A DNA stretch of 64,000 nt from Cyanidioschyzon merolae (taxonomy: Eukaryota): NCBI GenBank assembly GCA_000091205.1, contig AP006497.2, one strand, 5' to 3'. The translations under genes were made by a program, and so were the position numbers. Numbering within the stretch: position 1 is the first letter of the stretch; every line of letters begins with the position of its first letter. Below the pieces are notes generated by a model. That model was given only the letters and a program-made list of their open reading frames with translations. It made no database searches and was not told the origin of the DNA. Shown in pieces: positions 1 to 35,247 of this stretch.

Positions 1-797
1 TTGGTTATGCCAGAATCATCATGGGACAAGTTGACCCAGCCATCGGCTTTGACATGATAAACGTTAATGTAGCCGCCGCTGTAAGCATCTCGGTGGGTTG
101 CGTGGAAGATAGCGCGTCGGCCGAGCTCCGCAGCCTCAGCTGCATCCATGTCCCAGCGATAGAACTGGTCCAGAACTCCGTAAGCAAATGTTGAACCTGA
201 CCCGACTGAGAATCGTGTCCCCCGTAAACGAACACCATCGCTATCGACGTAGAAAAGCTGCGGGCCGGTTTTATCCCAGCCCGCAATCATCGTGCCCATG
301 GACAATCCCATGCCCTTGTATTCGTAAACGATATTGGCAAGAAGCTTGGATGCAGCGGCGACTGAGATCCGTTCCCGGTGCTGCAACTCGTGTAGACGAC
401 ATCGCATTCCGAGATAGCGCTCCCAGAATGAGCAGTCGGCCGCGCCGCCCGCCATGGTGCCCAACAGATATGGATTGATCTCGATGATTTTCTTCACGGT
501 ACCAGATCCAATGTATTGGCCCATAGACGCTCTCGAGTCGACGGCCACAATAATCCCATCGCGGAAGACAAACGCTAAAGTGGTTGTCCCGTGCAAAAAC
601 TTCACCAAGGAGCTGTTCTGTTCGTCCCGTAGAACGTCCCGCAACCTCGGTGCGATGCTTGCTCCGCGAGGAACTCGAACTCGCCCAAGACTCAGGTCCA
701 TGGGTGCAGCGGTGTTGTCACCGTCCGAGCTGGGGCATATGTCGCTCCCGCTGCACAACGAAAACGTCCGATCTAAAAACTCCAGCGGTGCGTACAT
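1..797 (-). CDS. PSMB5: 20S proteasome subunit beta type-5 (chymotrypsin-like catalytic subunit), N-terminal ~265 aa; the C-terminal end runs off the window start
   Basis: Minus-strand translation from the ATG near 797 gives a propeptide followed by the mature N-terminus [60 protein letters not shown]...[25 protein letters not shown]...[15 protein letters not shown]...[13 protein letters not shown]. This is near-canonical beta5/PRE2 in one continuous frame. The listed ORF 5..286 is its downstream continuation. Confidence 0.9.
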
Positions 798-2755: not shown

Positions 2756-2783
2756 ATGTGTGTGTGTGTGTGTGTGGGTGCTC
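2756..2783. repeat. (TG)n dinucleotide microsatellite
   Basis: Uninterrupted tgtgtgtgtgtgtgtgtgtgtg run seen directly in the sequence. Confidence 0.95.
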
Positions 2784-2844
2784 CTGCGTACGCTCGATAG
2801 TCGACTACACCCAAAGAAGAATTTGAAATAGCAATCAAACGCTC

Positions 2845-3687
2845 ATGTTTGTCACATGTTTACTCGTGTCCGGTTCGAGGCGTAAAGGAACCGCTAACTG
2901 TGCATTGAACTTGCACAGAGCACAAACGGCAACCTGGGCAGCCTCGCGAAGCACGCAGCAGTTGCAAGTGCAAGGTTGGCGGAAACCCGTCAAACCAGGG
3001 GCATGCCAGGTCCTAAACGCCCAGTTAACTGTCTTTCGAAATCCGAAAAGCGGAGGGCCCGGCGCTCAAGCGAGCCGCGAGCCGCCGTCATTCGCACAGG
3101 TCTTGCGTGAAATGGCGCCCACTGGAAAACTCGACGACTTTGTCGTTTACGACTCAGACGGAAAACAACACCAGTTGCTCGATGTTGTCGGGAGTTACGG
3201 ACCAGAAGATAAGGATATGAAAGCAACGTTAGTGATCTGGCCGCGGCACTTTGGCTGCGTGCTTTGTCGCCGCCTCGTGAAAGAGCTCGCCGCCCGTGAA
3301 CAAGCCTTTCGACAAGAGCGCAAGTGGCGGCTCATGGTGATAGGTTGCGGCACTCCGGAGCAAGCTGCCAAGTTCCGTACGGATGCAACGCTTGGGCCCT
3401 TACCAGCGAGCATTCCGGTATACACAGATCCGTTGCGTCGTTCGTATCTCGCACTACGTTTCCGACGCGGTATTCTGTCAACGTTCAACTTGCCTGCACT
3501 ACAGAACATCTTGGACAGTTTTCAGAAAGGCGAGCGTCAGCGCTGGGATATGATTCCTCCGGACGCGTTCCAACAGGGTGGTATTGCGCTCATTGAACGG
3601 GATACCGGGGCACTCTGGATGCTGTACCGTAGTCAGTACGCTGGCGATGCGCCCACTGCAGAGGACCTCCTGAATATAGAACTTTGA
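2845..3687 (+). CDS. Thioredoxin-fold protein of the PRXL2/SelU (AhpC-TSA-like) family; the true start is probably an internal Met (~3112, MAPTGKLDDF)
   Basis: ORF of 280 aa. The segment KATLVIWPRHFGCVLCRRLVKELA...RLMVIGCGTPEQAAKFRTDATLGPLPASIPVYTDPLRRSYLAL resembles the CxxC-containing PRXL2/FAM213-type redox fold. Assignment rests on remembered family features, not a search. Confidence 0.55.
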   Translation: MFVTCLLVSGSRRKGTANCALNLHRAQTATWAASRSTQQLQVQGWRKPVKPGACQVLNAQLTVFRNPKSGGPGAQASREPPSFAQVLREMAPTGKLDDFVVYDSDGKQHQLLDVVGSYGPEDKDMKATLVIWPRHFGCVLCRRLVKELAAREQAFRQERKWRLMVIGCGTPEQAAKFRTDATLGPLPASIPVYTDPLRRSYLALRFRRGILSTFNLPALQNILDSFQKGERQRWDMIPPDAFQQGGIALIERDTGALWMLYRSQYAGDAPTAEDLLNIEL

Positions 3688-13128: not shown

Positions 13129-15726
13129 TCAAAATGGAGATTCTGCACCCGATAGGGACGAGACGGCGTACATGCCTTCCAAGTCGGAGGCGCTCCACGC
13201 ATCCATGTTGGCTTCGTCGTCCTCCGCCGAGAGACGCAGATATTCGAGTGCTGCGAAGCGATCCCAGTCCGTTAGGTCGGGGACTGCCCGCTCCTGTCTC
13301 AAGAGTGATGGATCTCGACTTTCGATCGCGATGAACTTGTTCAAGTTGAACAGGATATTGAAGAAATGGCTCTGCATGCGACTGGATCGTAAAGCTGAAC
13401 GCGTGATCACCGGTGGATCAAGATCCTTGCTGATCATGTCCAGCAACTGACAGAGAATATCCTCAAATGCAACTGGTTCGTGCCCCAGACACTCCATTCG
13501 ATGCAGTTGTTCTGAATAGAGCCAATCAACATCGTACAGGGTGATCTTTCCATCGCCGTCCGCATCAATGCAGCGAAACCAATAATCCAAGGCCGTCTCT
13601 GAATTCTTGTCTTCCTCGCTGAGGATAAACCAGATGAAATCCGTATAGCTCATGTAGCCTGGGCGTGCGCAGTCGAGAGGCCTTCCTCGTCCACTAAAGA
13701 TACAGTCAATGATCCGGTAGGTCAGGGCGTGCCCGTTGTAGCGCAGCAGATCCTCGCGGTCGATCATGAGATCATGATCTGTGTCCAATTCCCAGAATCG
13801 ACAGTAAATCACGTAGAAATGCTCGTAGCTGAAACAACTACGCTCCTGGTTGATGTCCTCTTGTTCGTCGACGCTTCGAAAAATGTCCAAGAGACGATGT
13901 CGGCGGATATCCGACAGATACGCCTGCCCATTCGGCCGGTTCAGATAGTAGAATATCCGTTCGATGACTGTCTCAGCGTAGCGATGCTGGAACTCTGGGG
14001 TGGACTGCAGAAACTGTAAGCCGGGATGCGTCGCCAGCAGCGCATCAATGAAGGGTCGAAAGTCGGAACCAACAAGGTATCGGCGCTCATGTGCTTGTCG
14101 GTCGGCTCGATCCCGTTGCCCGTCGAGATTCCGCCGATTCGATGTCCATGAAGCTGCTGCAGACCTGGGCGAGATGCTGCTTCTTGGTGAGGATACGCTG
14201 TGAGCGTCGCTCTCCGTACGCTCCTCGTTCGGAACCGATGCGTGATAGTCACGGGAGCGTTGGAGTGCGTGGAAGAGGCGAGCGTGTCGATCGTAGCCGG
14301 CACAGTCCTCAACATACCATTGCAAGAATATGGACTGATGGATACGCTCACCCGTTGCCCCCGGGATGCTGATCTCCTTTGCGCCCTTCTTGTTCGTACC
14401 TTCTACCTCCGAAGCTACGTTGGACGTTTCGAAGTGCTGTTGGCGTTGGAGCAAGCGCTCGAAAATGACCAGCGAGACAAAGCTCGGCAACCCGACAATG
14501 TCCATAATGAGTTCAACGACCTCGCGCTGGCTCAGTGCTCCGTCTTGGCAATCAAAAGCGGCCTGTATGGCCTGTTGTTCTTCTGCAGCCCGGATGACGT
14601 GTTCGTGCGCGCGCCCATCTGGATAGTAGAAGCGCGGGATCGTCTCCGCCTTTGCGAATGCGCACTCTGATGGTACAAAGAGCGCATTCACCGCTGAACG
14701 CTTGTTCAGACCTCCTGAATGGAGCGCATTTCGCTGGTGTGCTGTCTCCTCACATGCAGGTAATGGTGGCGAGAACGATGCTCCATTCTCAGTCGAAGAG
14801 CCATCGTGGCCTACTCCCGAGTCCATATATGATGCGATCTCATGGCAACGCTCCTCGGTATCGGATTGACCATGTGCCATCGCCGCATCGCTATCCTCAA
14901 CTTCGGACCAGATCCTAAAAACCTCATACTTTCTGATGAAATGTGATACTGGCGACTGTGGGCTCGACGTCAAAGAAGCTTCCTCTGTGGAGCTACTCCG
15001 TGAACGGCCTTGCCTTGCAACGCGTGCTTCGCCACCAGCGGGCGAGCCCGGAGTTTGGCTCAAGATGCGATAGAAGGCGCTGCGCGCCGCTCCGGCCGGG
15101 GAGTTTGGCGTAATGGTATCGGCATTCGTCGGACGCTTTGCGGTTGCCCCGTGCGATGCAGCATTACACGAAGCTGTCGGGCTCGAAAGTCGTTCCTGGC
15201 GGAGCATGGTAGGCTTCGGTGAACCAGCAGTCACAAGATCTTCGTCGGTCACCCTTCCCGTGACGTCCAGTTTCCCCAGGACCTGCTCCAACCAAGCGAG
15301 CGTTTCCGGGAGAAACAACCAACGCATAAAGAGGTACTCTAAGTGCCGTTTCGGCTCTAGCGCAATATCCGTGGCCGATAGCGTCACCAGCAGTTTTGGT
15401 GCGTCCATGGTGCCGGAAATCGCGTGCACACCGGACTCGTCGCCCCCGGTAACAAACACAGCTGTAACCTCTATACCAGACTCTATGGTCTGCTCAGAGG
15501 ACATTATTGAAGCGTTCCTACGTAGATCACTCGAGCTGCTGCAGCTCAGCGGAGTCAGGCCGGGGAGATGTGTGCCAAGCCTCACCCGCTTGCGTCTCAA
15601 GACACGAGGCGAGACTGGAACGCACCTTTCAACTTTACAACCATCGCCAGAAGCCGTTCGAAAGTCGAACGACGTCGGGCGTGTACAGTAGTGGCGGCGA
15701 ACGCGCCCTAGACAAATCGTCTCCAA
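13129..15726 (-). CDS. Protein phosphatase 2A regulatory subunit B'' (PR72/PR130-like, EF-hand)
   Basis: ORF of 865 aa. The C-terminal half matches the B'' family: DIFRSVDEQED, FSYEHFYVIYCRFWELDTDHDLMIDREDLLRYNGHALTYRIIDCIFSG, YWFRCIDADGDGKITLYDVDWLYSEQLHRMECLGHEPVAFEDILCQLLDMI. The true start is possibly the internal MSSEQTIESG (~15507), because the first 12 codons overlap the outer end of the inverted repeat. Confidence 0.85.
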   Translation of the reverse strand: METICLGRVRRHYCTRPTSFDFRTASGDGCKVERCVPVSPRVLRRKRVRLGTHLPGLTPLSCSSSSDLRRNASIMSSEQTIESGIEVTAVFVTGGDESGVHAISGTMDAPKLLVTLSATDIALEPKRHLEYLFMRWLFLPETLAWLEQVLGKLDVTGRVTDEDLVTAGSPKPTMLRQERLSSPTASCNAASHGATAKRPTNADTITPNSPAGAARSAFYRILSQTPGSPAGGEARVARQGRSRSSSTEEASLTSSPQSPVSHFIRKYEVFRIWSEVEDSDAAMAHGQSDTEERCHEIASYMDSGVGHDGSSTENGASFSPPLPACEETAHQRNALHSGGLNKRSAVNALFVPSECAFAKAETIPRFYYPDGRAHEHVIRAAEEQQAIQAAFDCQDGALSQREVVELIMDIVGLPSFVSLVIFERLLQRQQHFETSNVASEVEGTNKKGAKEISIPGATGERIHQSIFLQWYVEDCAGYDRHARLFHALQRSRDYHASVPNEERTESDAHSVSSPRSSISPRSAAASWTSNRRNLDGQRDRADRQAHERRYLVGSDFRPFIDALLATHPGLQFLQSTPEFQHRYAETVIERIFYYLNRPNGQAYLSDIRRHRLLDIFRSVDEQEDINQERSCFSYEHFYVIYCRFWELDTDHDLMIDREDLLRYNGHALTYRIIDCIFSGRGRPLDCARPGYMSYTDFIWFILSEEDKNSETALDYWFRCIDADGDGKITLYDVDWLYSEQLHRMECLGHEPVAFEDILCQLLDMISKDLDPPVITRSALRSSRMQSHFFNILFNLNKFIAIESRDPSLLRQERAVPDLTDWDRFAALEYLRLSAEDDEANMDAWSASDLEGMYAVSSLSGAESPF

Positions 15727-18195
15727 TTGCTGTGTAGACGCCTTCCCGTCTTTTTGGAGCGGCCGCCAACTACTGCTTCCAACTTTTTCTCATATAGTTC
15801 GACCTTGAGAGGTTGTCCAACAAAGTTCACTCTTGTCAACGCTGGAGGTCTCGTCTCCAGCGCCGCACATCTCCTTATATTGATGGCGGCGTTAAAGTCT
15901 CGGTTCACAAACTCCATACGTTTCGTGCCATCACTGGTTGTACTTACTGATGCAAGCAATCCTCGAACTTTCGCTCTCCTTTCCATTTGCCCTTCCGGCA
16001 GCGCTCCGTACTTTTTCGTATCCTTAGGGCTCCGCTGGCACTTTTCCATCTCCACCCTCTGGAGTGTACACCCCAGTTCATGGTGTGTATACGATGTTCG
16101 AAACTCATCTACAGGTATTGTTTCAAAACGCCGTGCGCGCTCCCTCTACGTTCTCGTCGTTGGAGCTGGCGTCGTCCTTTTTGGGTCTTCCATCGGCCTG
16201 CTCCGTACGCTACTATGAGCCTCTGACTTTTATCCTCCTTCAAGTCACTCAACTGATTGAGAAAGTTCGCGAACGCACGCTGCATCCCACCGTAGAGATT
16301 CATTCGCAAACGAGCCCACCGGGGCTTGGTATACTCCTCCCACAGCGCATCCCAATGGGCAACACGAACTTCCATGAATTTCCGAAAAGCATCAAGGTCC
16401 GCTCCTCGGCTCGTCACCTCGCTCATAGCTTCCAGGTGATCCTTCATTCCTGAATTCCATGTAACGATTTTCTTCCTCGCATTCACTATACCGGATTCTC
16501 GATAGTATCTCGCTCTCGAGAACCTCAACAGACGCATGTCTTTCTGACGAAAGTTGCCGTCAGCACCATCTTCCGCACGCTTGGGAGCAGCGATGGTGAT
16601 GATATTCGTGTTTCCGGGGTCCGCGCCAAGGACAAAGTCGTTATCCTGCACTTTCTGCATCGCAGGATCCGCCTCCTACTTTTCTTCATGCTTTGCCGCG
16701 TCAGCGACAAAGTCGTTATCCTGTACCTCCAGCGTCTCAGGATCCGCCTCCTTCCCATCTTCATCCTTCGTCACGTCAACGTTAAAGTCGTTATCCTGCA
16801 CTTTCTGCATCGTAGGACCCGCCTTCTTCTCATCTTCATGCTTCGTCACGTCAACGACAAGGTCGTTATGCTCCACCTCCTGCGTCGCAGGACCCGCCTC
16901 CTTCTTTGCTTCATCCTTCGTCACGGGCGCAGCCGAGGGCGGAACTGGCCGATCTTTCCTCAATGCCGATAGTGTACACAGATGGCTACTCCATCGGTTT
17001 CGATCAACCCAGTGAGTACCTTTTGTTTGCTGACTTTGAGAAGTTTGAAATTGAAGATATTCTTCCGGTACGCCTCCTGGTTTTCACCGGAGAACTCCTC
17101 CCTGCGAACATTGAACTCCAGACTGATCTCCTTCATAATGCCGTGAAGGATTCTGGAGTGGATGGACACAAAATCTGACCTTATGTTGCACATTGGAACC
17201 ACGTTGAAGCGCTTCCCCATTAGGAACGCCTTCCGTCTCTCCCGCTCTTCATTTCTTTCCTCACTCAGCTTCATCTCCGCTTTGCGTTCGAGCTCTCGGT
17301 CCAGAAACACGAAATATCGCAGGATGAGGCGATAATATCTTTCCTTATCTTTTTTCAACGCTGATATCTTTTCTGCTGGATTCGCCAGCCCCAAGACTGC
17401 ACAGTGCTCTTGTATAGCCGTACGGATTACAGAATCCTCATTCGTGCTCTCGTTTGACGCCTTCTTGTCAACGAATTCGATCTCATCTTCATGCTAGCGA
17501 TCTTTCGTGATGGCATCGATAATCGCCCATATTCCATTGCGAGATAGGCCCGGGTAGCGTGCAAACACGGCGCGTATCATGAAACGTTCGAGGTTCATAG
17601 TCAAATGCTTCTTCAGGTTCGTGAGCTACTTCATCGCCCCATAGTCGTAAATATTCGAGTCACCCTTGTATCGAGTACCATTGAATCTGTAAAAGGGATG
17701 TTTTTCGTGGAGGGTATGCACTAGCACATTTTCCTTCCGCGCTTTCTCTTTACGAAGCATCAGGTGTTGAATAAACGTCTTATCGATGGACTCGTCCGGA
17801 ATCTCGACCGTTTCGATCTGCGTCACGTCGCGATACATCTCTCTCGCCAAATGCATCAGTCCTGACGAAGCCTTGACAAGACTCTTGGAGTACGAGTCGA
17901 CACGGTTTTCGATTGCGTCTCGCAACTTTTCCCTGTACGGATCCTTGATATGTCCAAGAAGAATGGTTGTCGCCACCTTCTCGACGTACAGCCGTCTTTC
18001 TTGCCGCCTTCGACGTAGGGCCTCTCCCTTTAGGTCCTTCTTCGCTTCCTTGTCTTCTGGACTCGGCACAGTTTTCGTTTTTTTCTGGTAGTCGGCGACA
18101 CTGAGCCTCCAGGATCGTCGGCTTGCTGTTTCATAGCTTTTTTGTTTCTTTGAAAAACAACGCTCTTTGAAGGCTTCTGTTACATACAGCGACAA
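15708..18195 (-). CDS. TnpB/Fanzor-like RuvC-fold nuclease, copy 1. It has the same 4-segment structure (17626-18195, 16960-17394, 16109-16963, 15708-16055), plus 3 extra in-frame 25-aa repeat units before RuvC-I
   Basis: The ADPGNTNII motif has its Asp at ~16619-16621. The [10 protein letters not shown] motif has its Asp at 15897-15899. Segment translations are ~98% identical to copy 2. The same TAG codons and frameshift positions are present. Confidence 0.65.
16625..16925 (-). repeat. 4 tandem units of 75 bp, in frame, encoding 25-aa repeats ([25 protein letters not shown] and variants) just upstream of the RuvC-I motif of nuclease copy 1; copy 2 has a single unit (23871-23945)
   Basis: Minus-strand ORF 16676..16963 shows [25 protein letters not shown] / [25 protein letters not shown] / [25 protein letters not shown] / AAKHEEK...[18 protein letters not shown]. 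Confidence 0.85.
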
Positions 18196-18399
18196 AACGC
18201 TTGACTAGACTTGTTTGAGGTTTGAACCACAAATGAATTAGAAAACTACACTTTGCTACGACCTGAACGGATATCCAATGTTTTACAGCTGAACAACACG
18301 TTACTGATGCCCACGACAGGGACCTTTACCACAATGAACGGAGGGGCGGAGGCAGTAGCAGCAGAAAATATTGACGATAATTCTGAGTAGTTATCCGCT

Positions 18400-21300
18400 G
18401 CTCCCGAAACAACGCTGCAGCTTCGGGCGCAAAATCTGGGTCCATCCTCGAGCTCGGGCTCAGTTTTACCTCCTTCTTCGGTTTCTACCTCAACTCTGGA
18501 AACAATCTCGGCGGATATTTTGGAAGACGGCTGGCGGTATGTTCGCGTTCGAAGCTGGAACGAACGACTTGCCCGCCTATGTGTTTGGGGAGCGGATACA
18601 AAGCCGCTGAAAGGTTGGTTCGTAGAGTATCCCCAGTGGTTGAGGGGAGCTTCATGTGTCCGGCAAGATAAAGGTCGCATTCGAGTCGACCTTGACTAAT
18701 GTACATCTGATTCTACGCTAGTGCGGCGCCAAGCACTCAATGAACGACTGGAATGCGGGAGGCGCTGGTGGCATGTACGCTCACACACCCCGTGGAGGGT
18801 GCATCTAAATTGACGACGTATCTCTGGAGTACCGCAGCGCTATTCCTATTCCGTTACGCGCTACAAATCGGTAGGTATTGCATCATGGAATATTTGTGGT
18901 GTAGCCTCGAAACTAGAATAAGAGATATCGAATTACTAGTAGAGTAAAGAGGATCAGATACAACTGAAGGACTCTACAAAAGGAAAAGCGATCCAACGAG
19001 ATACGGAGAAGGAGACACAGGAACCTCATGATCCACCTAGATGCAAAATAACCAGAGAAAGCAGCTCAGGAAAGAGCCCGAAGAAGAAGAAGACCAACAA
19101 GAAAAGACAGAAGAATAGAGAGAAGAACTCCCAAGCGAGCCCATCATGAGTGATCCCCCGAAAGAGCACCCCAGCAGGAACTCAAGAAAGCCGTCGCCAA
19201 ACCGAGTCACCTACTCACAGCGCTGAAGATCCGAAAAGCCGTGCGTACAAATCTTTAGACCAATTGGCACGCGAGTTTGTAGATGGGAATCAGAAGACTG
19301 CCAGAGAACTGGGACGGCTGGCACCAGAACGCAACAGTTGGAAACCGCAGTACCTGAAACGACGTATCAAAACTCGGATTGATGAATGCCACCGACTCAA
19401 TAAGATCCTCAACCGCACCGCCATACGCGCCAACGCCGGAGACAAGGAAGCGAAGGCAGCGCTACCGGCGCTACAGGCGCAACATGAGGAAGCTATCAAA
19501 AGAAAGAAGAAACTTTCCAGAGAAGACAAACGAGAGGATCGAAACCGCAAAATCGCCTCTCTGATGGAATCTACGCTAGAGAGCACCAACGAAGATGAGA
19601 CCTGGCGCTATATTCGATCGAGACTCGACCCACCGAAAAGTGCTTGGGGCTCACACCAACTGTTAAAAAGAAGAGCTGAGGACGGAGAGTGCCTCAGTGA
19701 ATGAGGCCTGGATAGACCACGGGAGAGAGCTGCATGAAGACGCAACTGGGAACTGCCAAGACCGAATCTATTGGCATCAGTATGCTGCAGAACTACCGCG
19801 CCTCAACCCGGTACCGGAATGGAACGACCCAATCTTCTGGCCTGAATCTGTTCGGACCCTGCTATGCTCAAGCAACCGCAAAACACCTGGCATCGACGGT
19901 ATCGCGACGGAGTGGATGAAACTGGCGACCCCAAAAGACGGGACAACAGGGACACCATCGATACCAGATGAACCTGACACAATCTTAGGCAAACGCCCTC
20001 TGGAGCTCATCCAACGCATGTTTGAAGAAGCATACATCCCTGATGTATGTAGGAGTGTTGAGGTCGTATCGATCCTCAAAAAGGACTCCCACATACACAG
20101 ACATGAACAACTACCGGACTATTCGCCTCATCCCGTCAATCATGAAGCTACTTTGCGCCATGCTCACGAACCGGATCCAGAGGGGCCTCGAGGAGCGCAA
20201 GTTCTTCGCTTCAGAACAGGCTGGATTCCGGAGTCGCGAGGAGTGCATGAGCCATGTCCTGACCCTCATCGGAGTGGCGCAACGTCGCTCCATTAGCGAC
20301 CAACAACCAGCTTACGTATGCTTCATCGACTTTCAAAAGGCCTTTGACACGGTCCCGCACGAGGCTCCATTTCTCAAGATGGAACGCGCCGGAGTCTCCG
20401 AAAAGTGCTTGGCGTTCTTCAGTGCGCTCTATGCAGACTCGTGGATGCGCATCCGACTGGGCGACAGCTCAAGAACCCCTTCCAGAAGAATCCGCCGTGG
20501 ACTGCGACAGGGCGACCGCGCATCCCCGCTCCTTTTCAACATCTTCATCAACGATCTGCTGAACAACGGCAGACAATTCGTGGCTGAGGCGCCGTGGATA
20601 GACTGTGGAGATGTCCGGTGAGGAGCCCTCAGATAGGAACCGCCTCGCAGGCCTTCTATTCGCGGACGATGTCGTGCTGTTGGCACCCACCCCGGAAACG
20701 CTTGCGGCTAGCATGGAACAAGTCAGCGCCTGGACCGATCGCTGGGAGATGAGCATAGGAGCATCGAAGTGCGGCGTCATGGTCATCCATGGAGACTCGC
20801 AGAGCATTCGCAATCGCTCGTGGCGGTTGCAGAATCAGGAAATTCCGGTCGTGGAAAAATATCGCTACCTGGGGGTCGGTCTCATGCTGACGCTCGACGA
20901 AAAGGCACACATCGACGAGATGATCGCCAAGATGCATAGAGGTACAGCGATCGCACGCCCATTCCTATCCGATCCCTCTATCTGCATAGCAATCCGTACG
21001 AGGGCACTAAGGATGTGTATCATCCAGCCTGCGACCTGGGGTGCTGAATTGTGCGGCATAAAGCACAAAAATGCCTCGCGTCTGCAGACAGCCGCCAACA
21101 GGGCAATGCGACTCGTTCGTGTTGGATGCTCAGTGCAGAGCAGAGCAACCAACCCGTTGACACTCGGACCTGAACTCCAAACACCATCGACAGAGGCGAT
21201 AGCAGCAGGCTTCCAGGCACGTGTGTGGGCCAAAGGGCCCATCATGCGCACCTGGTTCAGTCGGAGTTTCATGCAGACCCCAACGCACTCCAAGAAATCT

Positions 21301-22400
21301 TGGATGGAATCGACGCAGATTTGGTTGGAGCGCCACTTAGGCGAAAACACGCTCCCCAATCATTCCCCAGGAATATAGAAGGCTCCCGCCGCCTCTAGCG
21401 AACGGTCCGAACAACCATATGGGAATTTAGACAAGGTACCAGTCGCGCAAGTAACGCCGGCTTGACCCTATCCGGAACTACACCCTAGCATACACATGCA
21501 AGTACTGGTAGGGGGTGCTGGAATTCCCGGGACTTGCTCGAGGTACCCAGTGGCTCGCCAAAATCCGCGTTGGTGGCTTCCGGCTGGCAGCACCGGCTCT
21601 AAGCCGGAAAGGAGCACTGGAATCGCACTGGGAATCACACTGTCCCTGCTGTGGAGACGAGAGCCCCCGAGAAGCTGACGCATTTACTGTTACAGTGCCC
21701 GCGCTAGAATCAGGAGCGCAGCGAGCTCCTTGAAGGACAGCAGCAGCTGGGCATCAGCGTGATAGTGGAAGGCCGGACACTCATTCTGAGTGTAGCACTG
21801 GCAACTGATGGTCCGCTAACCGAGCCGCAGCGCTCGTTAGTGGCGAACAAACTCACATTCTACCTTCTAAGCGGCAGGTCCAACGAATCGGATGAGCACA
21901 CGGGTTTAGTGCTCTTTGTGCCTGCCTACTGGCGGGTGTCAAGCACAAACCCGCATTGCCGACCGACAACACATTCAATGCATGATCACGAAGGAGAGAG
22001 GCGGCTCCCAGGATTCATCCTAACAGCCAAGTTTCTCCAGCGTGTCGTGCAGCGAAGGTAAGACTGCATTTGCAGACTCGCTGAGCATATATCGACGAAG
22101 AGACCCGATTCTACGTCGGGTGAACCACGCCTCGAGCCGACGCCCTCTGTGGTATAGCAACGCCGTTCTGTCTCTATGAGCTATCTGCTCCAGCATTTAA
22201 GGTGCAAAGGCGAATACGGAGCGGCAGCTACTAGGCACACACGATAGGACGTATGAAACGACCAGAATATCTGAGATGAAGCATAGGTAATCTAACTTGG
22301 AGGCAGGTGCTTCATCATGGACGCTTTCCCGAAAGCCATTATCCATTCCAAATTCTGGGATCCATGGTCAATGGAAACGTCTTGTCAATAACAAAAAAAC
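18400..22400 (+). mobile_element. Degenerate, probably 5'-truncated non-LTR retrotransposon (LINE, L1/CR1-like RT) occupying the centre of the palindrome
   Basis: RT motifs lie in three different frames: KTPGIDGIATEWMK (19697..20296), YRTIRLIPSIMKLL...QAGFRSREE...FIDFQKAFDTVPHE...GLRQGDRASPLLFNIFINDL (20022..20621), LLFADDVVLLA (20605..21378). A C-terminal Cys/His motif HCPCCGDES...H is at ~21640-21700. An A-rich tail-like stretch aataacaaaaaaacaaa is at ~22385-22400. No endonuclease domain is recognisable upstream. Confidence 0.8.
19697..21378 (+). pseudogene. LINE reverse transcriptase ORF2 remnant with at least two frameshifts
   Basis: RT domains 0-7 are spread over ORFs 19697..20296, 20022..20621 and 20605..21378 in different frames. 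Confidence 0.8.
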
Positions 22401-22482
22401 AAATTGCGCTCGGTGGGCGCACCTCGGAGATCGGGAAGTCAACTGACACGACGCGCATGCCGCCGTAGAAGGGTAACGCGAT

Positions 22483-24880
22483 TGGGATCAGTAACGTGTT
22501 GTTCAGCTGTAAAACATTGGATATCCGTTCAGGTCGTAGCAAAGTGTAGTTTTCTAATTCATTTGTGGTTCAAACCTCAAACAAGTCTAGTCAAGCGTTT
22601 TGTCGCTGTATGTAACAGAAGCCTTCAAAGAGCGTTGTTTTTCAAAGAAACAAAAAAGCTATGAAACAGCAAGCCGACGATCCTGGAGGCTCAGTGTCGC
22701 CGACTACCAGAAAAAAACGAAAACTGTGCCGGGTCCAGAAGACAAGGAATCGAAGAAGGACCTAAAGGGAGAGGCCCTACGTCGAAGGCGGCAAGAAAGA
22801 CGGCTGTACGACGAGAAGGTGGCGACAACCATTCTTCTTGGACATATCAAGGATCCGTACAGGGAAAAGTTGCGAGACGCAATCGAAAACCGTGTCGACT
22901 CGTACTCCAAGAGTCTTGTCAAGGCTTCGTCAGGACTGATGCATTTGGCGAGAGAGATGTATCGCGACGTGACGCAGATCGAAACGGTCGAGATTCCGGA
23001 CGAGTCCATCGATAAGACGTTTATTCAACACCTGATGCTTCGTAAAGAGAAAGCGCGGAAGGAAAATGTGCTAGTGCATACCCTCCACGAAAAACATCCC
23101 TTTTACAGATTCAATGGTACTCGATACAAGGGTGACTCGAATATTTACGACTATGGGGCGATGAAGTAGCTCACGAACCTGAAGAACCATTTGACTATGA
23201 ACCTCGAACGTTTCATGATACGCGCCGTGTTTGCACGCTACCCGGGCCTATCTCGCAATGGAATATGGGCGATTATCGATGCCATCACGAAAGATCGCTA
23301 GCATGAAGATGAGATCGAATTCGTTGACAAGAAGGCGTCAAACGAGAGCACGAATGAGGATTCTGTAATCCGTACGGCTATACAAGAGCACTGTGCAGTC
23401 TTGGGGCTGGCGAATCCAGCAGAAAAGATATCAGCGTTGGAAAAAGATAAGGAAAGATATTATCGCCTCATCCTGCGATATTTCGTGTTTCTGGACCGAG
23501 AGCTCGAACGGAAAGCGGAGATGAAGCTGAGTGAGGAAAGAAATGAAGAGCGGGAGAGACGGAAGGCGTTCCCAATGGGGAAGCGCTTCAACGTGGCTCC
23601 AATGTGCAACATAAGGTCAGATTTTGTGTCCATCCACTCCAGAATCCTTCACGGCATTATGAAGGAGATCAGTCTGGAGTTCAATGTTCGCAGGGAGGAG
23701 TTCTCCGGTGAAAACCAGGAGGCGTACCGGAAGAATATCTTCAATTTCAAACTTCTCAAAGTCAGCAAACAAAAGGTATTCACTGGGTTGATCGAAATCG
23801 ATGGAGTAGCCATCTGTGTACACTATCGGCATTGAGGAAAGATCGGCCAGTTCCGCCCTCGGCTGCGCCCGTGACGAAGGATGAAGCAAAGAAGGAGGCG
23901 GGTCCTGCGACGCAGGAGGTGGAGCATAACGACCTTGTCGTTGACGCGGACCCCGGAAACACGAATATCATCACCATCGCTGCTCCCAAGCGTGCGGAAG
24001 ATGGTGCTGACGGCAACTTTCGTCAGAAAGACATGTGTCTGTTGAGGTTCTCGAGAGCGAGGTACTGCCGAGAATCCGGTATAGTAAATGCGAGGAAGAA
24101 AATCGTTACATGGAATTCAGGAATGAAGGATCACCTGGAAGCTATGAGCGAGGTGACGAGCCGAGGAGCGGACCTTGATGCTTTTCGGAAATTCATGGAA
24201 GTTCGTGTTGCCCATTGGGATGCGCTGTGGGAGGAGTATACCAAGCCCCGGTGGGCTCGTTTGCGAATGAATCTCTACGGTGGGATGCAGCGTGCGTTCG
24301 CGAACTTTCTCAATCAGTTGAGTGACTTGAAGGAGGATAAAAGTCAGAGGCTCATAGTAGCGTACGGAGCAGGCCGATGGAAGACCCAAAAAGGACGACG
24401 CCAGCTCCAACGACGAGAACGTAGAGGGAGCGCGCACGGCGTTTTGAAACAATACCTGTAGATGAGTTTCGAACATCGTATACACACCATGAACTGGGGT
24501 GTACACTCCAGAGGGTGGAGATGGAAAAGTGCCAGCGGAGCCCTGAGGATACGAAAAAGTACGGAGCGCTGCCGGAAGGGCAAATGGAAAGGAGAGCGAA
24601 AGTTCGAGGATTGCTTGCATCAGTAAGTACAACCAGTGATGGCACGAAACGTATGGAGTTTGTGAACCGAGACTTTAACGCCGCCATCAATATAAGGAGA
24701 TGTGCGGTGCTGGAGACGAGACCTCCAGCGTTGACAAGAGTGAACTTTGTTGGACAACCTCTCAAAGTCGAACTATATGAGAAAAAGTTGGAAGCAGTAG
24801 TTGGCGGCCGCTCCAAAAAGACGGGAAGGCGTCTACACAGCAGTTGGAGACGATTTGTCTAGGGCGCGTTCGCCGCCACC
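22483..24880. repeat. Right arm of the large inverted repeat (contains nuclease copy 2 on the plus strand)
   Basis: Reverse-complement match to 15690-18310, read directly. Confidence 0.9.
22600..24862 (+). CDS. TnpB/Fanzor-like RuvC-fold nuclease, copy 2. The reading frame is split into 4 ORF segments (22600-23169, 23401-23835, 23832-24461, 24515-24862; ~657 aa total), so it is either an intron-containing gene or a pseudogene
   Basis: A RuvC-I-like motif [16 protein letters not shown] has its Asp at 23949-23951. A RuvC-III-like motif [15 protein letters not shown] has its Asp at 24671-24673; D-x-N-A-A-x-N-I is the TnpB/Cas12/Fanzor signature. The RuvC-II region reads [12 protein letters not shown] (no Glu), as reported for Fanzor1-type proteins. 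No CxxC...CxxC zinc ribbon is seen. Segments 1-2 are joined in frame through two TAG codons (23167, ~23296). Segments 2-3 differ by a frameshift. Segments 3-4 could be joined by a 56-nt GT..AG intron (24458-24513). A basic NLS-like stretch RRRRQERR lies near the N-terminus. There is no in-frame ATG at the N-terminal end. Confidence 0.65.
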
Positions 24881-25163
24881 GCTGAAAACTGCGGGAAGCA
24901 ACGTCTTTCTTTTGAAAGAGGTTTGTTGTTGCTGGTGGCGGTTGTGCATCTTTATATCCTGGATCGTGTCAGCGATCTCACACGGTACAAAAGTTGAAGG
25001 GGTGCAACACACGTACAGCTTCTCTGTCTGGGCACGTGCAACGCTCGAATCCTGGCGGCGCTCTCGAGACTGATAGAGAAAGCCCGCTTGTGAGGTATGC
25101 TCGGCGCTTGTTTGATTCGCGCTCTTACCCTGCGCAGGAAGCCGTGAACAAAATACTGCTGGC

Positions 25164-30084: not shown

Positions 30085-30548
30085 GTTCACATTCCGCTGA
30101 TAAAGCGCTTTGCTGAGTACGAGACGTTCTCGTGATGAGAGCGCAGCCCCGGTGCTTGTCTCTCGCAGTGATCACGCCCATGGCAGAGCACTGGGAACCC
30201 CCGCATTGCACTCATAAAGCGCTTTGCTGAGTACGAGACGTTCTCGTGATGAGAGCGCAGCCCCGGTGCTTGTCTCTCGCAGTGATCACGCCCATGGCAG
30301 AGCACTGGGAACCCCCGCATTGCACTCATAAAGCGCTTTGCTGAGTACGAGACGTTCTCGTGATGAGAGCGCAGCCCCGGTGCTTGTCTCTCGCAGTGAT
30401 CACGCCCATGGCAGAGCACTGGGAACCCCCGCATTCCACTCATAACGCGCTTTGCTGAGTACGAGACGTTCTCGTGATGAGAGCGCAGCCCCGGTGCTTG
30501 TCTCTCGCAGTGATCACGCCCATGGCAGAGCACTAGGAACCGGAACGA
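30085..30548. repeat. Tandem repeat, 4 copies of a 114-115 bp unit
   Basis: The unit ...aaagcgctttgctgagtacgagacgttctcgtgatgagagcgcagccccggtgcttgtctctcgcagtgatcacgcccatggcagagcactgggaacccccgcattgcactcat recurs at 30102, 30216, 30330 and 30444. Read on the minus strand (ORF 30087..30770) it encodes 38-aa repeats. Confidence 0.95.
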
Positions 30549-31900
30549 GTGCGTGCACTGCGATTCAGCTTGAGAATGAGGAGATCCTCGATACCATGTG
30601 CTAAACGAATACCTGGTGGACAGCAAATATCCCGACCATATCGCCGCTCTTCGAGTTGCATACGCGCCACACTGATTGCTAAAAACGGAGGCGGTATCAC
30701 GTCGCGCTCCACGAACACATCGATGGCTCGTACGATCCAGTTCACGAACCCGAGTTGAAGGTCGGTGCATTCCTCCAGATCGGTCGGACGAACTGGCAGC
30801 CGCATTCGAAAGCCACGGGGGTGCAGTACACCCGATACATCAACGGCATAAAAACCCGCATGAATAGGCAGCATGTTCACCGGATCGATTTGGAGCTGTC
30901 GTAGAACAGCCCGATAACAGTGGTCGATCGGTTGTGCTGATCCGTTTTGCACAGCGCTTAATGCCGCTTCATCAGTGTAAACAATGAGGTTATAGAGTGG
31001 TCCGCAAAACGTCAGTGAGTTACGTCGATTCCGAGCGCAGCGGTGGTAAACATGCAGGTCCGCATAGAGCGGCTCCAACGGCACACTAAGATAGATGTCA
31101 GGCTGTTGATAGCGTTGAATCACCGCAGGGATCATGGTTTTCGAGTGTCTGTTTCGGGACCTTGCCGAGCTGGCACGGTTCGGTCGCAGCATCCCCGTCA
31201 GGCTAGTGAGTGCGGGGTGTAGAGGCGCCAACCACTGAGGCCCCGGTGACTGCTCCACTGCTGCAGACGCTTTCTGCACAGTCGCTGCCTGAGCTGCCTG
31301 CCGGTGCTGTTGGTTGCGTAGGCCCCAGCGCGACTCTTGGAGTGATCTAGCAACGCGACTGGCAACCTGAGGCTGCACGCGAGCCGAGGCTAGCGCCGCT
31401 CGTTGCACAGCGATCCAGCCCTGCATGTGCCTCTCGGAACAACCGGCGTTTGTTGAGCTATACCAACAGCTGGACGTGAAACTCAAACTTCGAAACTGAA
31501 GTATAAACGCTCTGAAAGAAAACAACGCCAACGCTGCAGCGGCAGGTGCGCTGTCGTCTCTCGGAACACTGAAACCGATGATTGTATGCCGCTGAATGCC
31601 ATGGTTGTGGGCAAAGCAGCGAATTCTGGAGAACCTGTACCAGAACACCCTATTTATCTTGGTTTCCCCAAAGGCATGGAACAAAGGGAAAGTATCGAGT
31701 AGAGTGGAGACAAGTCCCGCAACGTCTGTGTGCTGTGCCTGCTGGCATGACCTGTACCAGAACACGCTATTTATCTTGGTTTCCCCAAAGGCATGGAACA
31801 AAGGGAAAGTATCGAGTAGAGTGGAGACAAGTCCCGCAACGACTGTGTGCTGTGCCTGCTGGCATGAAGGAGAACGGCATGACGTGTCGGTGTCAGTCAC
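30533..31900 (-). CDS. Hypothetical 455-aa ORF whose N-terminus is built from the 117-bp repeats; C-terminal ~200 aa are globular-looking but the family was not recognised
   Basis: A long ORF in GC-rich DNA. The C-terminal segment ...PIDHCYRAVLRQLQIDPVNMLPIHAGFYAVDVSGVLHPRGFRMRLPVRPTDLEECTDLQLGFVNWIVRAIDVFVERD... has mixed composition, suggesting a real domain. Confidence 0.35.
   Translation of the reverse strand: MTDTDTSCRSPSCQQAQHTVVAGLVSTLLDTFPLFHAFGETKINSVFWYRSCQQAQHTDVAGLVSTLLDTFPLFHAFGETKINRVFWYRFSRIRCFAHNHGIQRHTIIGFSVPRDDSAPAAAALALFSFRAFILQFRSLSFTSSCWYSSTNAGCSERHMQGWIAVQRAALASARVQPQVASRVARSLQESRWGLRNQQHRQAAQAATVQKASAAVEQSPGPQWLAPLHPALTSLTGMLRPNRASSARSRNRHSKTMIPAVIQRYQQPDIYLSVPLEPLYADLHVYHRCARNRRNSLTFCGPLYNLIVYTDEAALSAVQNGSAQPIDHCYRAVLRQLQIDPVNMLPIHAGFYAVDVSGVLHPRGFRMRLPVRPTDLEECTDLQLGFVNWIVRAIDVFVERDVIPPPFLAISVARMQLEERRYGRDICCPPGIRLAHGIEDLLILKLNRSARTRSGS
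31634..31867. repeat. Tandem repeat, 2 copies of a 117-bp unit
   Basis: cctgtaccagaaca...ctgctggcatga recurs at 31634 and 31751. It is ORF-preserving in both the + (31596..32006) and - (30533..31900) frames. Confidence 0.9.
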
Positions 31901-32700: not shown

Positions 32701-35247
32701 ATCCAGTTAAGCCACTGATCGTACGAGTTCGGGACCTAGGGATGCCAATTCTCCACAATTCTCTGGTTTGCTTCCAGCAAACCTTCAATACGGCAACACA
32801 GCTAATGCTCGGGACTGAAGAGGCTGCACAGATTGTACATAGGATCCGGGATGTACACATCCGCGTCCCAGAATACCATGACACGTTGCCGCAGCACGTC
32901 GGCGATGCGAGCATCCAAAGCGCGGGTACCGAACCTTGTCTGACGAACATCGAAAAAGAACATCTCCATATGCAGATCATTGTCGTGAAGTTCATGCAGC
33001 GCAGCAGCTGAGCGTTGTGCCCACAAATTCGTGGTCCGGTAAAATGCGAAGTGATGCACATGATTCTTGGGATGTTGATAGAGGCAAGTGATCGGCTGGT
33101 GCCACAAGACATCGAGGTGATTGCGAGCTCAGACGAGATGCCGCAACGAGATCCAGAGACGCTTCAGGTCGTTCATGCTTATGATGGTGCTCTGTTTCTC
33201 GGACTGTTGGATGTCGCATGCAGATATCGTTGGAAATGTGATGTGTTCGTGCATTCCTTGCTACCTGCACTCCCGTGTTTTCCTGAAGCGAACGCTCCAG
33301 AGCAAGGAATGCTCCATGTCACTGCAACCCGGGCGCTCTCGCCTCCTCAAAGCTTGAGGACGATATGGTCCCCATGAGTCACATCTACGCCAAAGATATT
33401 ACCATGGACAATTGGATAGCGTACTTTACGGCCTGTTCAGGGAGCGACGGCTTGTCTCTGGCAGCAAACGTAGAGGAGTATTCCGACAACATCGCCTGGA
33501 GCGTTGGCGGAGCCTTTGCAAGGTGTCTCGTTTACAGGGAAGAAACGGAAAGAAGCCGATCAGACAATCGAGATCAACGGAATATCCATTTGTATGCAAT
33601 TCTTGGAACCTTTGCCTGAAGCGAGCGGCTACAATCGATTGCAACCTTTCGTGTAGATGAAGCTCAGGACTTTGTGGTACACGTGGATGCCGGGTCGAAA
33701 GCCGTCATCGTCATCGCCACGCGTCTCGATCAGGAGCGCGGATCCAAACGCCTGATCGGGAGCATGGACGACGCTGCAAAACTATTCGAAGGCTCTTTAC
33801 GATAGCGAGAAGGCCACGCTGGAGGCCAGGATGCGTACCAGCAGGTCGAAGGACGGGATCAGGACCCGTTCGACGCGCTGAGCACCGCATCGAGCCGATG
33901 AGGATGCTATTTACGCAGTACTCAGAGCGTCCGTGAGCATCCAGATGCTTTATGAAGACGAGTTTTGACAGGCGTGTATGTCAGATCGCGCTGGAGTCGC
34001 CAATTGTTCTGATTGGATGGAGACAAGAACATGCTTTAGCCAATTGCATGAATGAGTTGGAAAAGTGACTCGCCGACAAATCGCGTCTATCACTGGTAAC
34101 CTATGGTGCTAGACGTGCCGTAGCGCGCAAAGGCTGCCCGTTTCCCATGATGAACCGAGCGTACAACGAGTGCAGGTATTGATCCTGAGCGATTCCCATC
34201 GATGCGCTCGAGGCGGCATATGCGCACCACGACCATGAACGCATGTGGAATCTGGTAGAAGGAACCAGTGTGAAGCAGATTCGGATGCACTATCTGGTGT
34301 CCGGGAAGCGGACCGGACGCCAGATACCGAAGTGATCGAAGATGAGAGGCTTGCTGTGCTGCGATTCCACGAGCAACAACGCACTTTCTGAACCCAGACC
34401 TGAATGCCTCCATCACCAATACGAAACGTGTCGTGCTTGCAGGGCGTCCGCCGGCCTTGTATCGATCGATGCTTCGAGGTGATCGCTTCGTACTCAATGT
34501 TAGCGTTGTGCTAAAAAGGCTGAAGGCTTCTGATGGGTAAAAATCAATAGCCAGGAGGCCGAGCATTGGAATCTCGAAAGGAGTACGGCATTGGCAGGGC
34601 ACGGTTCAGCAATTCAAAAACGCCAAAAGCGTGGTATATATGCGACAGGAACACTTTCAGCCTGGGCAATCAATGACCAATTGATGAGCTTCATGAATTG
34701 ATGTTGCTGAGTACACGAAACTCGCCATCGACGAAGGTTGATGGCGTTACGTCTCGATCGCAGTGATGAAGGCGTAGCAAACAATGGGGAACAACGAGTA
34801 TTCCCATGCATTTACGGGAAGTAGTCTCCGAGCACGCGGTAGCAGCTTGGGGCGGAAAGATGCCCCGCTTGGTGACCAGCCAGTCACTCGGTCTGTCAGC
34901 CAGACAGCCGGTGCCATGAGGTATCTTGCCGACAGGTGTCTAGCCCGCCATCCATGCTCGTATCCCTTTCAACTACAACGTTCTAGAATTCGCCAGTACC
35001 GTCCACGCTTTGTCACGAACGGCTGTCGCGGACGCCGCCTATGGTGTGTCCAGTTCCTGCCTAACGTTTTCGAATCAATCGGATGCTCGCTAATTTCGTG
35101 CGGCGAAAGAGTCACGCCCCTTGTCGTTGCAGCACAGGCACGCCATCCCCAGCCGCTGATGACCGAATGCAGGGTCAAACGAGCCTTCGCGTGCCTGCAT
35201 ACAGCGCCTGGAAGAGCGGGACGCCGGCACGCGGATGTGCTGACGCA

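Follow-up and report, generated by a model that had tools for sequence, protein, structure and literature searches.

The closest known counterpart of the locus analysed here is CMe-1A of Cyanidioschyzon merolae, which was published as a Fanzor1 family (Bao & Jurka 2013, Mobile DNA 4:12). The family comprises about 150 copies, which lack TIRs and individually share about 80% identity with the consensus; its gene, CMe-1, is listed as a single exon of 734 aa; and the family has no known partner transposase and was left unclassified (Bao & Jurka 2013). The same study calls the C4 zinc finger 'strictly conserved' (Bao & Jurka 2013). Fanzors are defined by a signature that combines a DPG motif with an alternative RuvC-II glutamate (Ealt), and a TDG motif in the WED domain is a feature of Fanzor1 (Yoon et al. 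2023). Fanzors have Gly or Pro in place of the canonical RuvC-II Glu, and the rearranged Glu occurs throughout the Fanzors (Fz1 and Fz2) as well as in some TnpBs (Jiang 2023). In the cryo-EM structure of SpuFz1, the residues D383, E541 and D606 are the Mg2+ ligands.

We analysed a 64,000-nt stretch of C. merolae DNA (contig AP006497.2), referred to as the window. Our analysis indicates that, very probably, positions 23940-24700 correspond to the RuvC nuclease half of an inactivated copy of CMe-1A, a single-gene, roughly 3-kb, TIR-less family encoding a Fanzor1 (CMe-1) that has the standard Fanzor active site and has lost its zinc-binding cysteines, and whose intact members would, by homology, be omegaRNA-guided. 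Judged by nucleotide and protein identity, the element is already known: it is CMe-1A/CMe-1, catalogued in 2013. Against the published 3,169-bp consensus, which was built from about 150 copies, a blastn search aligns positions 649-3166 to 22406-24918 of the window (copy B) with 86.4% identity over 2,520 nt, and positions 729-3137 align to a minus-strand copy at 18308-15681 (copy A) with 85-90% nucleotide identity. Both copies therefore belong to CMe-1A by the measure of at least 80% nucleotide identity to the consensus over most of the element, and they are 97-99% identical to each other across 22484-24880. Once its frames are repaired, copy B translates into 734 aa that are 80.4% identical to the published CMe-1 protein with no gaps; this is the single CMe-1 Fanzor1 ORF that the family encodes, and in the window it is broken. 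All motifs agree with the published family, including THHELGC...EKC...RGLLALVSTT. The window copies differ from the consensus in that both are inactivated, and in that copy B, which is missing the first 648 bp (5') of the consensus in direct orientation, adjoins an inverted 5' part instead. The same layout, with the inverted 5' part abutting the element, occurs in a further copy (L008). The 3' boundary of the element is sharp, as conservation among about 94 unique copies falls right after ...TTTTGAAAGGCG. An earlier, sequence-only reading of this DNA had assigned the protein to the Fanzor1 type, and that assignment stands; the publication of the family in 2013 went unrecognised. Towards its 3' end, copy A has a hairpin (CGTTCGA-CTT-TCGAACG) that suggested carriage by a Helitron2, as for Chlamydomonas Fanzors; this idea was rejected, since neither copy B nor the consensus conserves the hairpin and Bao & Jurka did not classify CMe-1A. 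The features of both copies are listed in Table 1.

Table 1. Positions of CMe-1A features within the 64,000-nt window
Feature	Position	Strand	Basis or remark
Copy A of CMe-1A element	15649..18308	-	Consensus 729 to about 3169
Additional tandem units of 75 nt (25 aa), copy A	16624..16923	-	Directly upstream of RuvC-I Asp 16619-16621
CMe-1A 5' part, inverted	22104..22387	-	Consensus 4-282, TE-N2_CMe-like; adjoins 5' end of copy B
Copy B of CMe-1A Fanzor1 element	22406..24921	+	Consensus 649-3169; blastn of published consensus
Conceptual Fanzor1 ORF, copy B (interrupted)	22661..24862	+	ATG 22661 to TAG 24860-24862; frames 2, 1, 0, 2; three-frame translation
In-frame TAG (consensus TAC, Tyr)	23167..23169	+	Common to copy A
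In-frame TAG (consensus MAG, Lys/Gln)	23299..23301	+	Common to copy A
1-nt deletion (~23831), frame 1 to frame 0	23829..23834	+	Common to copy A
RuvC-I catalytic Asp (GAC), DPG motif, V-D-A-D-P-G-N-T-N, frame 0	23949..23951	+	Equivalent to SpuFz1 D383
Canonical RuvC-II position, AYG-A-G, Gly in place of TnpB Glu, frame 0	24351..24380	+	Translation; relatives
1-nt deletion (~24394), frame 0 to frame 2, between WKTQKG and TTPAPTT	24392..24397	+	Common to copy A
In-frame TAG (consensus TAC, Tyr)	24422..24424	+	Common to copy A
Alternative RuvC-II Glu (Ealt; GAG), IPVDEFRTS	24464..24466	+	Equivalent to SpuFz1 E541; relatives
Degenerate zinc-finger (NUC/TNB) segment	24467..24670	+	Cys at TGC 24500-24502 and EK-C TGC 24530-24532; 0/4 canonical Cys
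RuvC-III catalytic Asp (GAC), RD motif, frame 2	24671..24673	+	Equivalent to SpuFz1 D606
3' ORF end and 59-nt 3' tail to element end; putative omegaRNA scaffold place	24697..24921	+	Analogy with Fanzors

Copies A and B are unable to make the protein. The ORF of copy B is interrupted and is therefore a pseudogene, and neither copy retains the uninterrupted reading frame of a functional gene. The five lesions (three TAG codons and two 1-nt deletions) are identical in A and B and private to this pair, and the consensus of five copies restores the open frames. Because A and B carry the same lesions, either one was copied from the other or gene conversion took place, in both cases after inactivation. 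The deletion near 24394 falls between the two catalytic aspartates, so that the RuvC-I Asp (frame 0) and the RuvC-III Asp (frame 2) are out of register. The sequence-only reading was right that both aspartates are intact, but it missed that they lie in different reading frames, the alternative Glu at 24464-24466, and the upstream lesions (TAG 23167, TAG 23299 and the deletion at ~23831). The dN/dS ratio is 0.39-0.52 between diverged copies, where values near 0.45 indicate moderate constraint and blend evolution in the active lineage with evolution after insertion, and it is 0.8 for A versus B. RIP-like or CpG decay was rejected as the source of the stops, since two of the three TAGs derive from TAC by a C-to-G transversion. 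Stop-codon reassignment of the trypanosomatid or ciliate type was also rejected: the stop sites are sense codons in other copies, and the host belongs to the cyanidiophycean red algae, with an SRP54 that is 88% identical to that of Cyanidiococcus yangmingshanensis.

A different view of these lesions is that A and B are expressed by recoding, through TAG read-through together with programmed frameshifting or transcriptional slippage at A-runs. All three stops are indeed TAG, one deletion lies within CCCAAAAAGGA, and in several copies an A-run puts the start ATG out of phase with the main frame. Nevertheless, recoding is very unlikely, as in the other copies these sites carry sense codons and lack no base, the lesions occur in A and B alone, the host ORFs in the window end normally, and the dN/dS of A versus B is as high as noted above.

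The Fanzor membership of CMe-1 rests on homology, and the homology is specific to Fanzor1. A profile of the family matches only Fanzor1 chains in the PDB: PpFz1 (9cf0, E 3e-19), SpuFz1 (8gkh, E 2.7e-13) and GtFz1 (9cer, E 2.7e-6). An AF2 model of the protein (pLDDT 77, pTM 0.74) matches the same three proteins in Foldseek with E values of 7e-17 to 2e-14 and TM scores up to 0.71, compared to an E value of 0.05 for the Fanzor2 ApmFz2 (9b0l). The TDG motif of the WED domain is present in the family, in the published consensus and in copy A, and reads EIDG (T-to-I) in copy B. Likeness in profile and fold, and the TDG motif, thus place the family with Fanzor1 and not Fanzor2, consistent with the type of protein originally proposed for this DNA. 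These relationships become visible only with a profile of diverse relatives, as a PDB search with the single sequence P0001 gave no match. A Pfam scan of the repaired protein and its homologues gave only a sub-threshold match to PF07282 (E 0.26) on the last 11 residues, and a second, word-indexed homologue search started from the diverse alignment returned almost solely the same close family. The precomputed Pfam family label is PF26935/DUF8286.

The catalytic residues can be placed on a solved structure. In an HMM alignment, the D, E and D of the family fall on residues 777, 935 and 1000 of 8gkh_P, which are D383, E541 and D606 of SpuFz1, so the motifs superimpose on the RuvC residues of a Fanzor as had been anticipated. 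Every one of 101 diverse relatives, at about 30% identity to the query, carries the Glu of VDEFRTS (101/101), and conservation of the DPG and RD motifs is 90% or more. This Glu lies 34 residues past the Tyr of AYG, the spot that was defined as Ealt by Yoon et al. 2023. The alignments show, on these grounds, that the active site of the family is the standard one for Fanzors: the DPG Asp of RuvC-I; Gly in place of the canonical RuvC-II Glu; Ealt in VDEFRT[ST], just before the position of the former finger; and the RD Asp of RuvC-III in NRDxNAAxNI. Copy A keeps the same three codons at 16619-16621, 16104-16106 and 15897-15899 on the minus strand. The sequence-only reading therefore holds for the coordinates and codons of the two aspartates and their conservation in both copies, for the lack of Glu at the expected RuvC-II position, and for a compensating Glu elsewhere, which can now be placed at the invariant GAG codon aligned to E541. 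It had taken the rearranged RuvC-II as Fanzor1-type; the rearrangement is present, but it is shared by all Fanzors and some TnpBs and is not peculiar to Fanzor1. This active-site layout has been textbook for Fanzors since 2023, and the locus serves as a worked example that a 'missing' Fanzor RuvC-II Glu is to be sought in D-E-[FY]-x-T-[ST].

The zinc finger presents a different picture. No C-x2-5-C pair occurs in the three sense frames of 24340-24700, and the sole CxxC in this interval ('CIRC') is on the antisense strand, in keeping with the initial observation that no zinc ribbon lies between RuvC-II and RuvC-III. That observation had been given three possible causes: loss by the lineage, an unrecognised exon, or decay of the gene. 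If the finger were missing only through decay of these two copies, which are demonstrably pseudogenes, the active family should have a normal C4 finger. However, the consensus of about 150 copies reads THHELGC...EKC...RGLLALVSTT, with none of the four finger cysteines in the published CMe-1; of the roughly 30 metagenomic copies spanning the region, 26-29 have the same finger-less reading; and the finger is absent in all 101 distant relatives, where the four positions are Cys in 10, 0, 63 and 1 sequences, respectively, and never in CxxC register. We thus consider decay as the cause extremely unlikely, even though copies A and B are indeed decaying.

The second cause, an intact gene split by introns with the ribbon in an unrecognised exon, would suit a eukaryotic host and the two frame changes inside the region. 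Yet the repaired translation is colinear and gap-free against the single-exon 734-aa consensus, and this colinearity already refutes the hidden exon. In addition, each frame change is one missing base with no insert, the stop positions are sense codons in other copies, relatives with uninterrupted ORFs equally lack the finger cysteines, and CxxC is found in no sense frame, which leaves this explanation next to no probability. Lineage-level loss is the cause that accounts for the data: as the finger is absent in the consensus and in 101/101 relatives while the catalytic triad shows little or no variation, the cysteines were lost by the lineage and not by decay or through a hidden exon. The alignments show that CMe-1 and a large clade of its relatives have lost the four zinc-binding NUC/TNB cysteines, unlike the solved Fanzor1s. 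The C4 finger expected of a Fanzor is thus lacking in the window copies, in published CMe-1 and in the relatives alike; and since Bao & Jurka list CMe-1 as Fanzor1 despite its lack of a finger, the finger is a usual feature of the group but does not define it.

Tentatively, CMe-1 may stand as the sole published representative of a large Fanzor1 clade, mostly environmental, that has no C4 finger, keeps Ealt invariant and both aspartates near-invariant, and would consist of zinc-independent nucleases if active. The profile matches 1,479 representatives, and the analysis covered at least 100 clusters formed at 50% identity; the members include one from a green alga, Tetrabaena socialis. If the clade is active, its NUC domain would be held by other means, for example a helical insert, and the CMe-1 subfamily possibly has a non-canonical His/His/Cys/Cys site (THHELGC-x9-C) in place of the finger. 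A zinc-finger-less Fanzor1 clade has been little discussed.

Nuclease activity of this clade is suggested by residue conservation and homology. The contrary view is that loss of the finger marks loss of cleavage, and that the whole CMe-1 clade is non-cleaving and acts in RNA-guided DNA binding or as a structural protein of the transposon. In its favor, conservation of the C4 finger has been described for TnpB, Fanzor and SpuFz1, CMe-1A is without a known partner transposase, and CrFNuc-1, the sole green-algal Fanzor1 tested, bound its RNA and gave no in vitro cleavage (Jiang 2023). We regard a non-cleaving clade as unlikely, however, as catalytic residues go in inactivated TnpB lineages, whereas here Ealt is invariant and the DPG and RD aspartates are near-invariant at about 30% identity. 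Moreover, finger-less branches of prokaryotic TnpB are considered active, and Cas12a, too, works without a zinc finger.

Intact members of the family would accordingly be read, by homology, as omegaRNA-guided, Mg2+-dependent DNA endonucleases, and transcription of their guide RNA may run, as for SpuFz1, from the element's 3' end out into the flanking DNA. The last 225 nt at the 3' end have a folding z score of -2.5 in the consensus and -1.1 in copy B. RNAalifold, run on 62 non-redundant 3' ends, gave no consensus structure, compensatory changes in the consensus MFE structure amount to 18 cells compared to 16-32 in slid controls, and the window contains no Rfam match and no tRNA.

For the window itself little is at stake, as it holds two dead copies of a family known since 2013. 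CMe-1A, with about 150 copies, a Fanzor as its only gene and no TIRs or known transposase, is a good system for the question of whether a Fanzor can propagate alone. The finger is commonly cited as a universal feature of TnpB and Fanzor, and its loss under a constrained triad bears on the role of the finger. If any member is active, the finger-less clade would also provide candidates for a zinc-independent compact nuclease.

The structurally characterized Fanzor1s, SpuFz1 (PDB 8GKH, 9CEU-9CEZ), PpFz1 (9CF0-3) and GtFz1 (9CER-T), have the same fold as CMe-1 (Foldseek E 7e-17, TM 0.7), although sequence identity is just 12-15%. The features in common include: the DPG RuvC-I, Ealt in D-E-[FY]-x-T-S and the NRD RuvC-III; a GLL motif that precedes the latter finger half; TDG in the WED domain; and an N-terminal K/R-rich stretch. 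They differ in the zinc finger, which is CCCC (CxxC...Cx4C) in the solved proteins; CMe-1 lacks all four cysteines and carries an insert of roughly 30 residues, predicted to be helical, between the former finger halves. At the level of the element, SpuFz1 elements have 30-nt inverted repeats and CMe-1A has none. Among prokaryotic TnpBs, those with a rearranged RuvC-II (TnpB2/RIIr, such as TvTnpB) likewise offset loss of the canonical Glu by an alternative Glu. Together with branches such as RIIIr-4, they differ from CMe-1 in being prokaryotic, far smaller and IS200/605- or IS607-associated, and in having mostly D-hydrophobic-G and not DPG; in these clades, Ealt and finger loss have apparently not been reported jointly. 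The TnpB branches without a C4 finger, for instance RIIIr-4, nonetheless resemble CMe-1 in that the finger was lost at the level of the lineage while the catalytic site was kept.

The RuvC-like region lies within one of two inverted copies (A and B) of CMe-1A, a Fanzor1 transposon family described from Cyanidioschyzon merolae as ~150 copies, each ~80% identical to a ~3-kb consensus (Bao and Jurka 2013). The element itself is already known: its consensus (3,169 bp) and its 734-aa Fanzor1 protein, CMe-1, are given in the supplement of that study, in which CMe-1A, lacking TIRs and with TSDs not determined, was left unclassified. No transposase is encoded in CMe-1A. At least six CMe-1A pieces occur in the 64-kb window, and a 20-nt pattern scan found at least 120 element copies in metagenome contigs. 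Cyanidialean red algae were suggested by the absence of introns, by G+C content and by the series of samples concerned. The inverted 5' part adjoining the 5' end of copy B corresponds to a portion of the consensus common to a separate element, TE-N2_CMe; the same head-to-head arrangement recurs in an unrelated metagenomic locus (L008) and may be a subfamily mark.

The window (G+C ~55%) is eukaryotic DNA, with long and unbroken host ORFs that include SRP54, a protein kinase and a RING protein. Identity of this SRP54 is 88% with Cyanidiococcus yangmingshanensis, 67% with Cyanidium caldarium and 58% with Galdieria, and the exact protein is found only in metagenome contigs (ENA ERZ27247235; JGI 3300050354 and 3300050366). 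The host therefore belongs to the cyanidiophycean red algae, as a relative of C. merolae and Cyanidiococcus. Two repetitive coding regions of the window, one of which would encode an acidic Asp/Glu-rich tract, are listed with the other features below.

Features of the window, with positions on the stretch
Feature	Position	Strand	Remarks
Copy A	~15649-18308	-	Inverted repeat of copy B; 18308-15681 = consensus 729-3137, 85-90%
Copy B	~22406-24921	+	CMe-1A Fanzor1 copy holding the RuvC-like region (23940-24700); 22406-24918 = consensus 649-3166, 86.4%
Inverted CMe-1A 5' part	22104-22387	-	First ~280 bp of consensus, by consensus mapping
CMe-1A fragment	47476-47716	+	73-78% to consensus
CMe-1A fragment	51311-51652	-	73-78% to consensus
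CMe-1A fragment	50922-51031	+	73-78% to consensus
CMe-1A fragment	58744-58806	+	73-78% to consensus
RuvC-I Asp	23949-23951	+	GAC in ADPGNTN
Canonical RuvC-II position	24351-24380	+	Without Glu
Alternative RuvC-II Glu (Ealt)	24464-24466	+	GAG, frame 2
RuvC-III Asp	24671-24673	+	GAC
TAG	23167	+	Consensus TAC (Tyr); common to A and B
TAG	23299	+	Consensus MAG (Lys/Gln); common to A and B
1-nt deletion	~23831	+	Common to A and B
1-nt deletion	~24394	+	Common to A and B
TAG	24422	+	Consensus TAC (Tyr); common to A and B
75-nt (25-aa) tandem unit, copy B	23870-23944	+	One unit
75-nt (25-aa) tandem unit, copy A	16624-16923	-	Four units, mutually 79-83% alike
Degenerate non-LTR retrotransposon (LINE)	19150-21400	+	Between A and B; RVT_1 E 2e-19 and 3e-6, over at least two frames
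EF-hand protein gene	near 15504-15726	-	Same strand as copy A
Older Fanzor1-like pseudogene	32766-34552	+	26-32% aa identity to CMe-1 family
455-aa ORF	30533-31900	-	No Pfam match; near-perfect tandem repeats
Tandem repeats	30090-30541 and 31633-31866		114 nt x 3 (97-99%) and 117 nt x 2 (98%)
Degenerate GAC/GAG/GAA-type coding repeat	49470-50050	-	Long; TCG/TCC/TCT-rich on + strand; within ORF 49463-50479 (-)

Both window copies are inactivated. In three-frame translation the Fanzor-like reading of copy B passes from frame 1 to 0 to 2 with three internal TAG codons, and scoring against a five-copy consensus and the published consensus showed every lesion to be common to A and B, so that the two descend from one copy that was already dead. 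Two of the three TAG codons derive from TAC by C-to-G. In addition, the conserved start ATG at 22661 is offset from the main frame by an A-rich run, CCAGAAAAAAACGAAAAC (22661-22720, + strand), in copies A and B and in the metagenomic loci L001 and L008, an offset that the published consensus does not have. This segment is purine-rich, so every frame gives a Lys/Arg-rich, NLS-like peptide. Lesions in other copies are different and private, L001 having just one, a late TAA. The dN/dS ratio is 0.39-0.52 among diverged copies and 0.8 for A versus B, the usual pattern of a transposon gene that is constrained in the active lineage and neutral once inserted.

Copies A and B are 97-99% identical (22484-24880 versus 15690-18311), and this block ends ~40 nt short of the element 3' end, beyond which the tails (15649-15689 and 24881-24921) are different variants, each present in other copies. 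This suggests either gene conversion, acting on two inserts that lie close together in opposite orientation, or an inverted duplication broken within the element. The 75-nt unit directly upstream of the RuvC-I DPG varies in number (up to four in metagenomic copies); the divergence of the copy A units shows that they are not recent, and the region is disordered in the AlphaFold2 model (pLDDT ~30).

The catalytic residues reported in the sequence-only reading are present at exactly the positions given. Their codons are intact in copy A as well. That reading had further proposed a rearranged, Fanzor1-type RuvC-II with a compensating Glu elsewhere, and this residue can now be located, 34 residues past the Tyr of AYG. 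Its position fits two published descriptions: in Fanzors the canonical RuvC-II Glu is replaced by Gly or Pro and a conserved Glu ~45 residues downstream is used, its mutation in ApmFNuc (E467A) abolishing cleavage (Jiang et al. 2023); and Fanzors are defined by the RuvC-I DPG together with Ealt, six residues before the first zinc-finger CxxC (Yoon et al. 2023).

A family profile, built from the protein of a metagenomic copy (P0001; 81-84% nucleotide identity) and 24 relatives of ~30% identity, matches the solved Fanzor1 chains PpFz1 (E 3e-19), SpuFz1 (E 2.7e-13) and GtFz1 (E 2.7e-6). The profile alignment pairs the family D(PG) with residue 777 of chain 8gkh_P, E(FRT) with 935 and (NR)D with 1000; after subtraction of the 394-residue MBP offset, these are SpuFz1 D383, E541 and D606, the ligands of two Mg2+ ions (Saito et al. 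2023). Among 101 representatives, Ealt is the sole fully invariant column, and conservation reaches at least 90% at every position of the DPG and RD motifs. At the level of sequence alignment, the D-Ealt-D triad superimposes on the SpuFz1 metal ligands and is constrained family-wide. The AlphaFold2 model of P0001 (pLDDT 77, pTM 0.74) matches SpuFz1, PpFz1 and GtFz1 with Foldseek E-values of 7e-17 to 2e-14 (TM up to 0.71), versus just 0.05 for Fanzor2, and the family also carries, as FTGLIETDG, the WED-domain TDG motif specific to Fanzor1. Homology to Fanzor1 extends to both sequence and fold. On whether the motifs superimpose on RuvC catalytic residues at all, the aligned triad, the fold match and the TDG motif favor the Fanzor reading.

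By analogy with the established behavior of Fanzor and TnpB, CMe-1 in intact form would be expected to bind an omegaRNA transcribed from the element's own 3' end, to use as guide the ~16-21 nt extending into the flank, to recognize a TAM and to cleave DNA through one RuvC site with two Mg2+ ions. The element has a sharp 3' boundary, at ...TTTTGAAAGGCG. The last 225 nt of the consensus are somewhat more stably folded than shuffled sequences (z = -2.5); the copy B 3' end is not (z = -1.1). RNAalifold on 62 non-redundant 3' ends gave no consensus structure, and compensatory changes in the predicted 3' fold showed no excess over slid controls. The 3' end of copy A (~15649) lies, in the outward direction of the putative guide RNA, ~145 nt upstream of the EF-hand gene start codon (ATG).

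The zinc finger is the point of departure from the solved Fanzor1 proteins. No CxxC had been seen between RuvC-II and RuvC-III, and indeed a C-x2-5-C pair is absent from all sense frames of 24340-24700. Compared with PpFz1 (first half DEFRTSSFCPKC, second half GLLRCKNMSC) and SpuFz1 (DEYKTSSVCPRC and GLLGCTNPNC), the window copies lack all four finger Cys at the matching columns. Three explanations had been offered. An unrecognised exon is excluded, since the 734-aa repaired translation of copy B aligns with CMe-1 without gaps (80.4% identity). Decay is real in that both copies are dead; it is not the cause of the missing ribbon, because the published consensus and 26-29 of the ~30 metagenomic copies covering the segment have the same residues at these positions. 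The remaining explanation, loss in the lineage, proves correct. None of 101 relatives, taken from the 1,479 matches (E <= 1e-3) among 1.84 billion cluster representatives searched, has an in-register CxxC. The first Cys position is most often His (42; Cys in 10), the second Asp (49) or Thr (32) and never Cys, and the fourth has no preferred residue (Cys in 1); the third, in RGLLWC, is Cys in 63. In the AlphaFold2 model the confidence for this segment is still moderate to good (block means 57-88), and a ~30-residue insert within it has two short helices. The lineage has therefore dropped the zinc ligands and retained the domain.

The much older pseudogene, invisible to blastn, reads YGARRAVARKG...IPIDALEAAYAHHDHE...MRGLLCCDSTSNN...FLNPDLNASITN; it keeps the 'GLLxC' Cys of this wider zinc-finger-less clade and has lost Ealt.

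The remaining interest is a zinc finger lost across a clade in which the catalytic triad is kept. The literature searched contained no discussion of such a loss in Fanzors. The C4 finger has been called 'strictly conserved' (Bao and Jurka 2013) and is conserved between SpuFz1 and ISDra2 TnpB (Saito et al.). Prokaryotic TnpB offers a precedent for loss of the finger with the catalytic triad retained.
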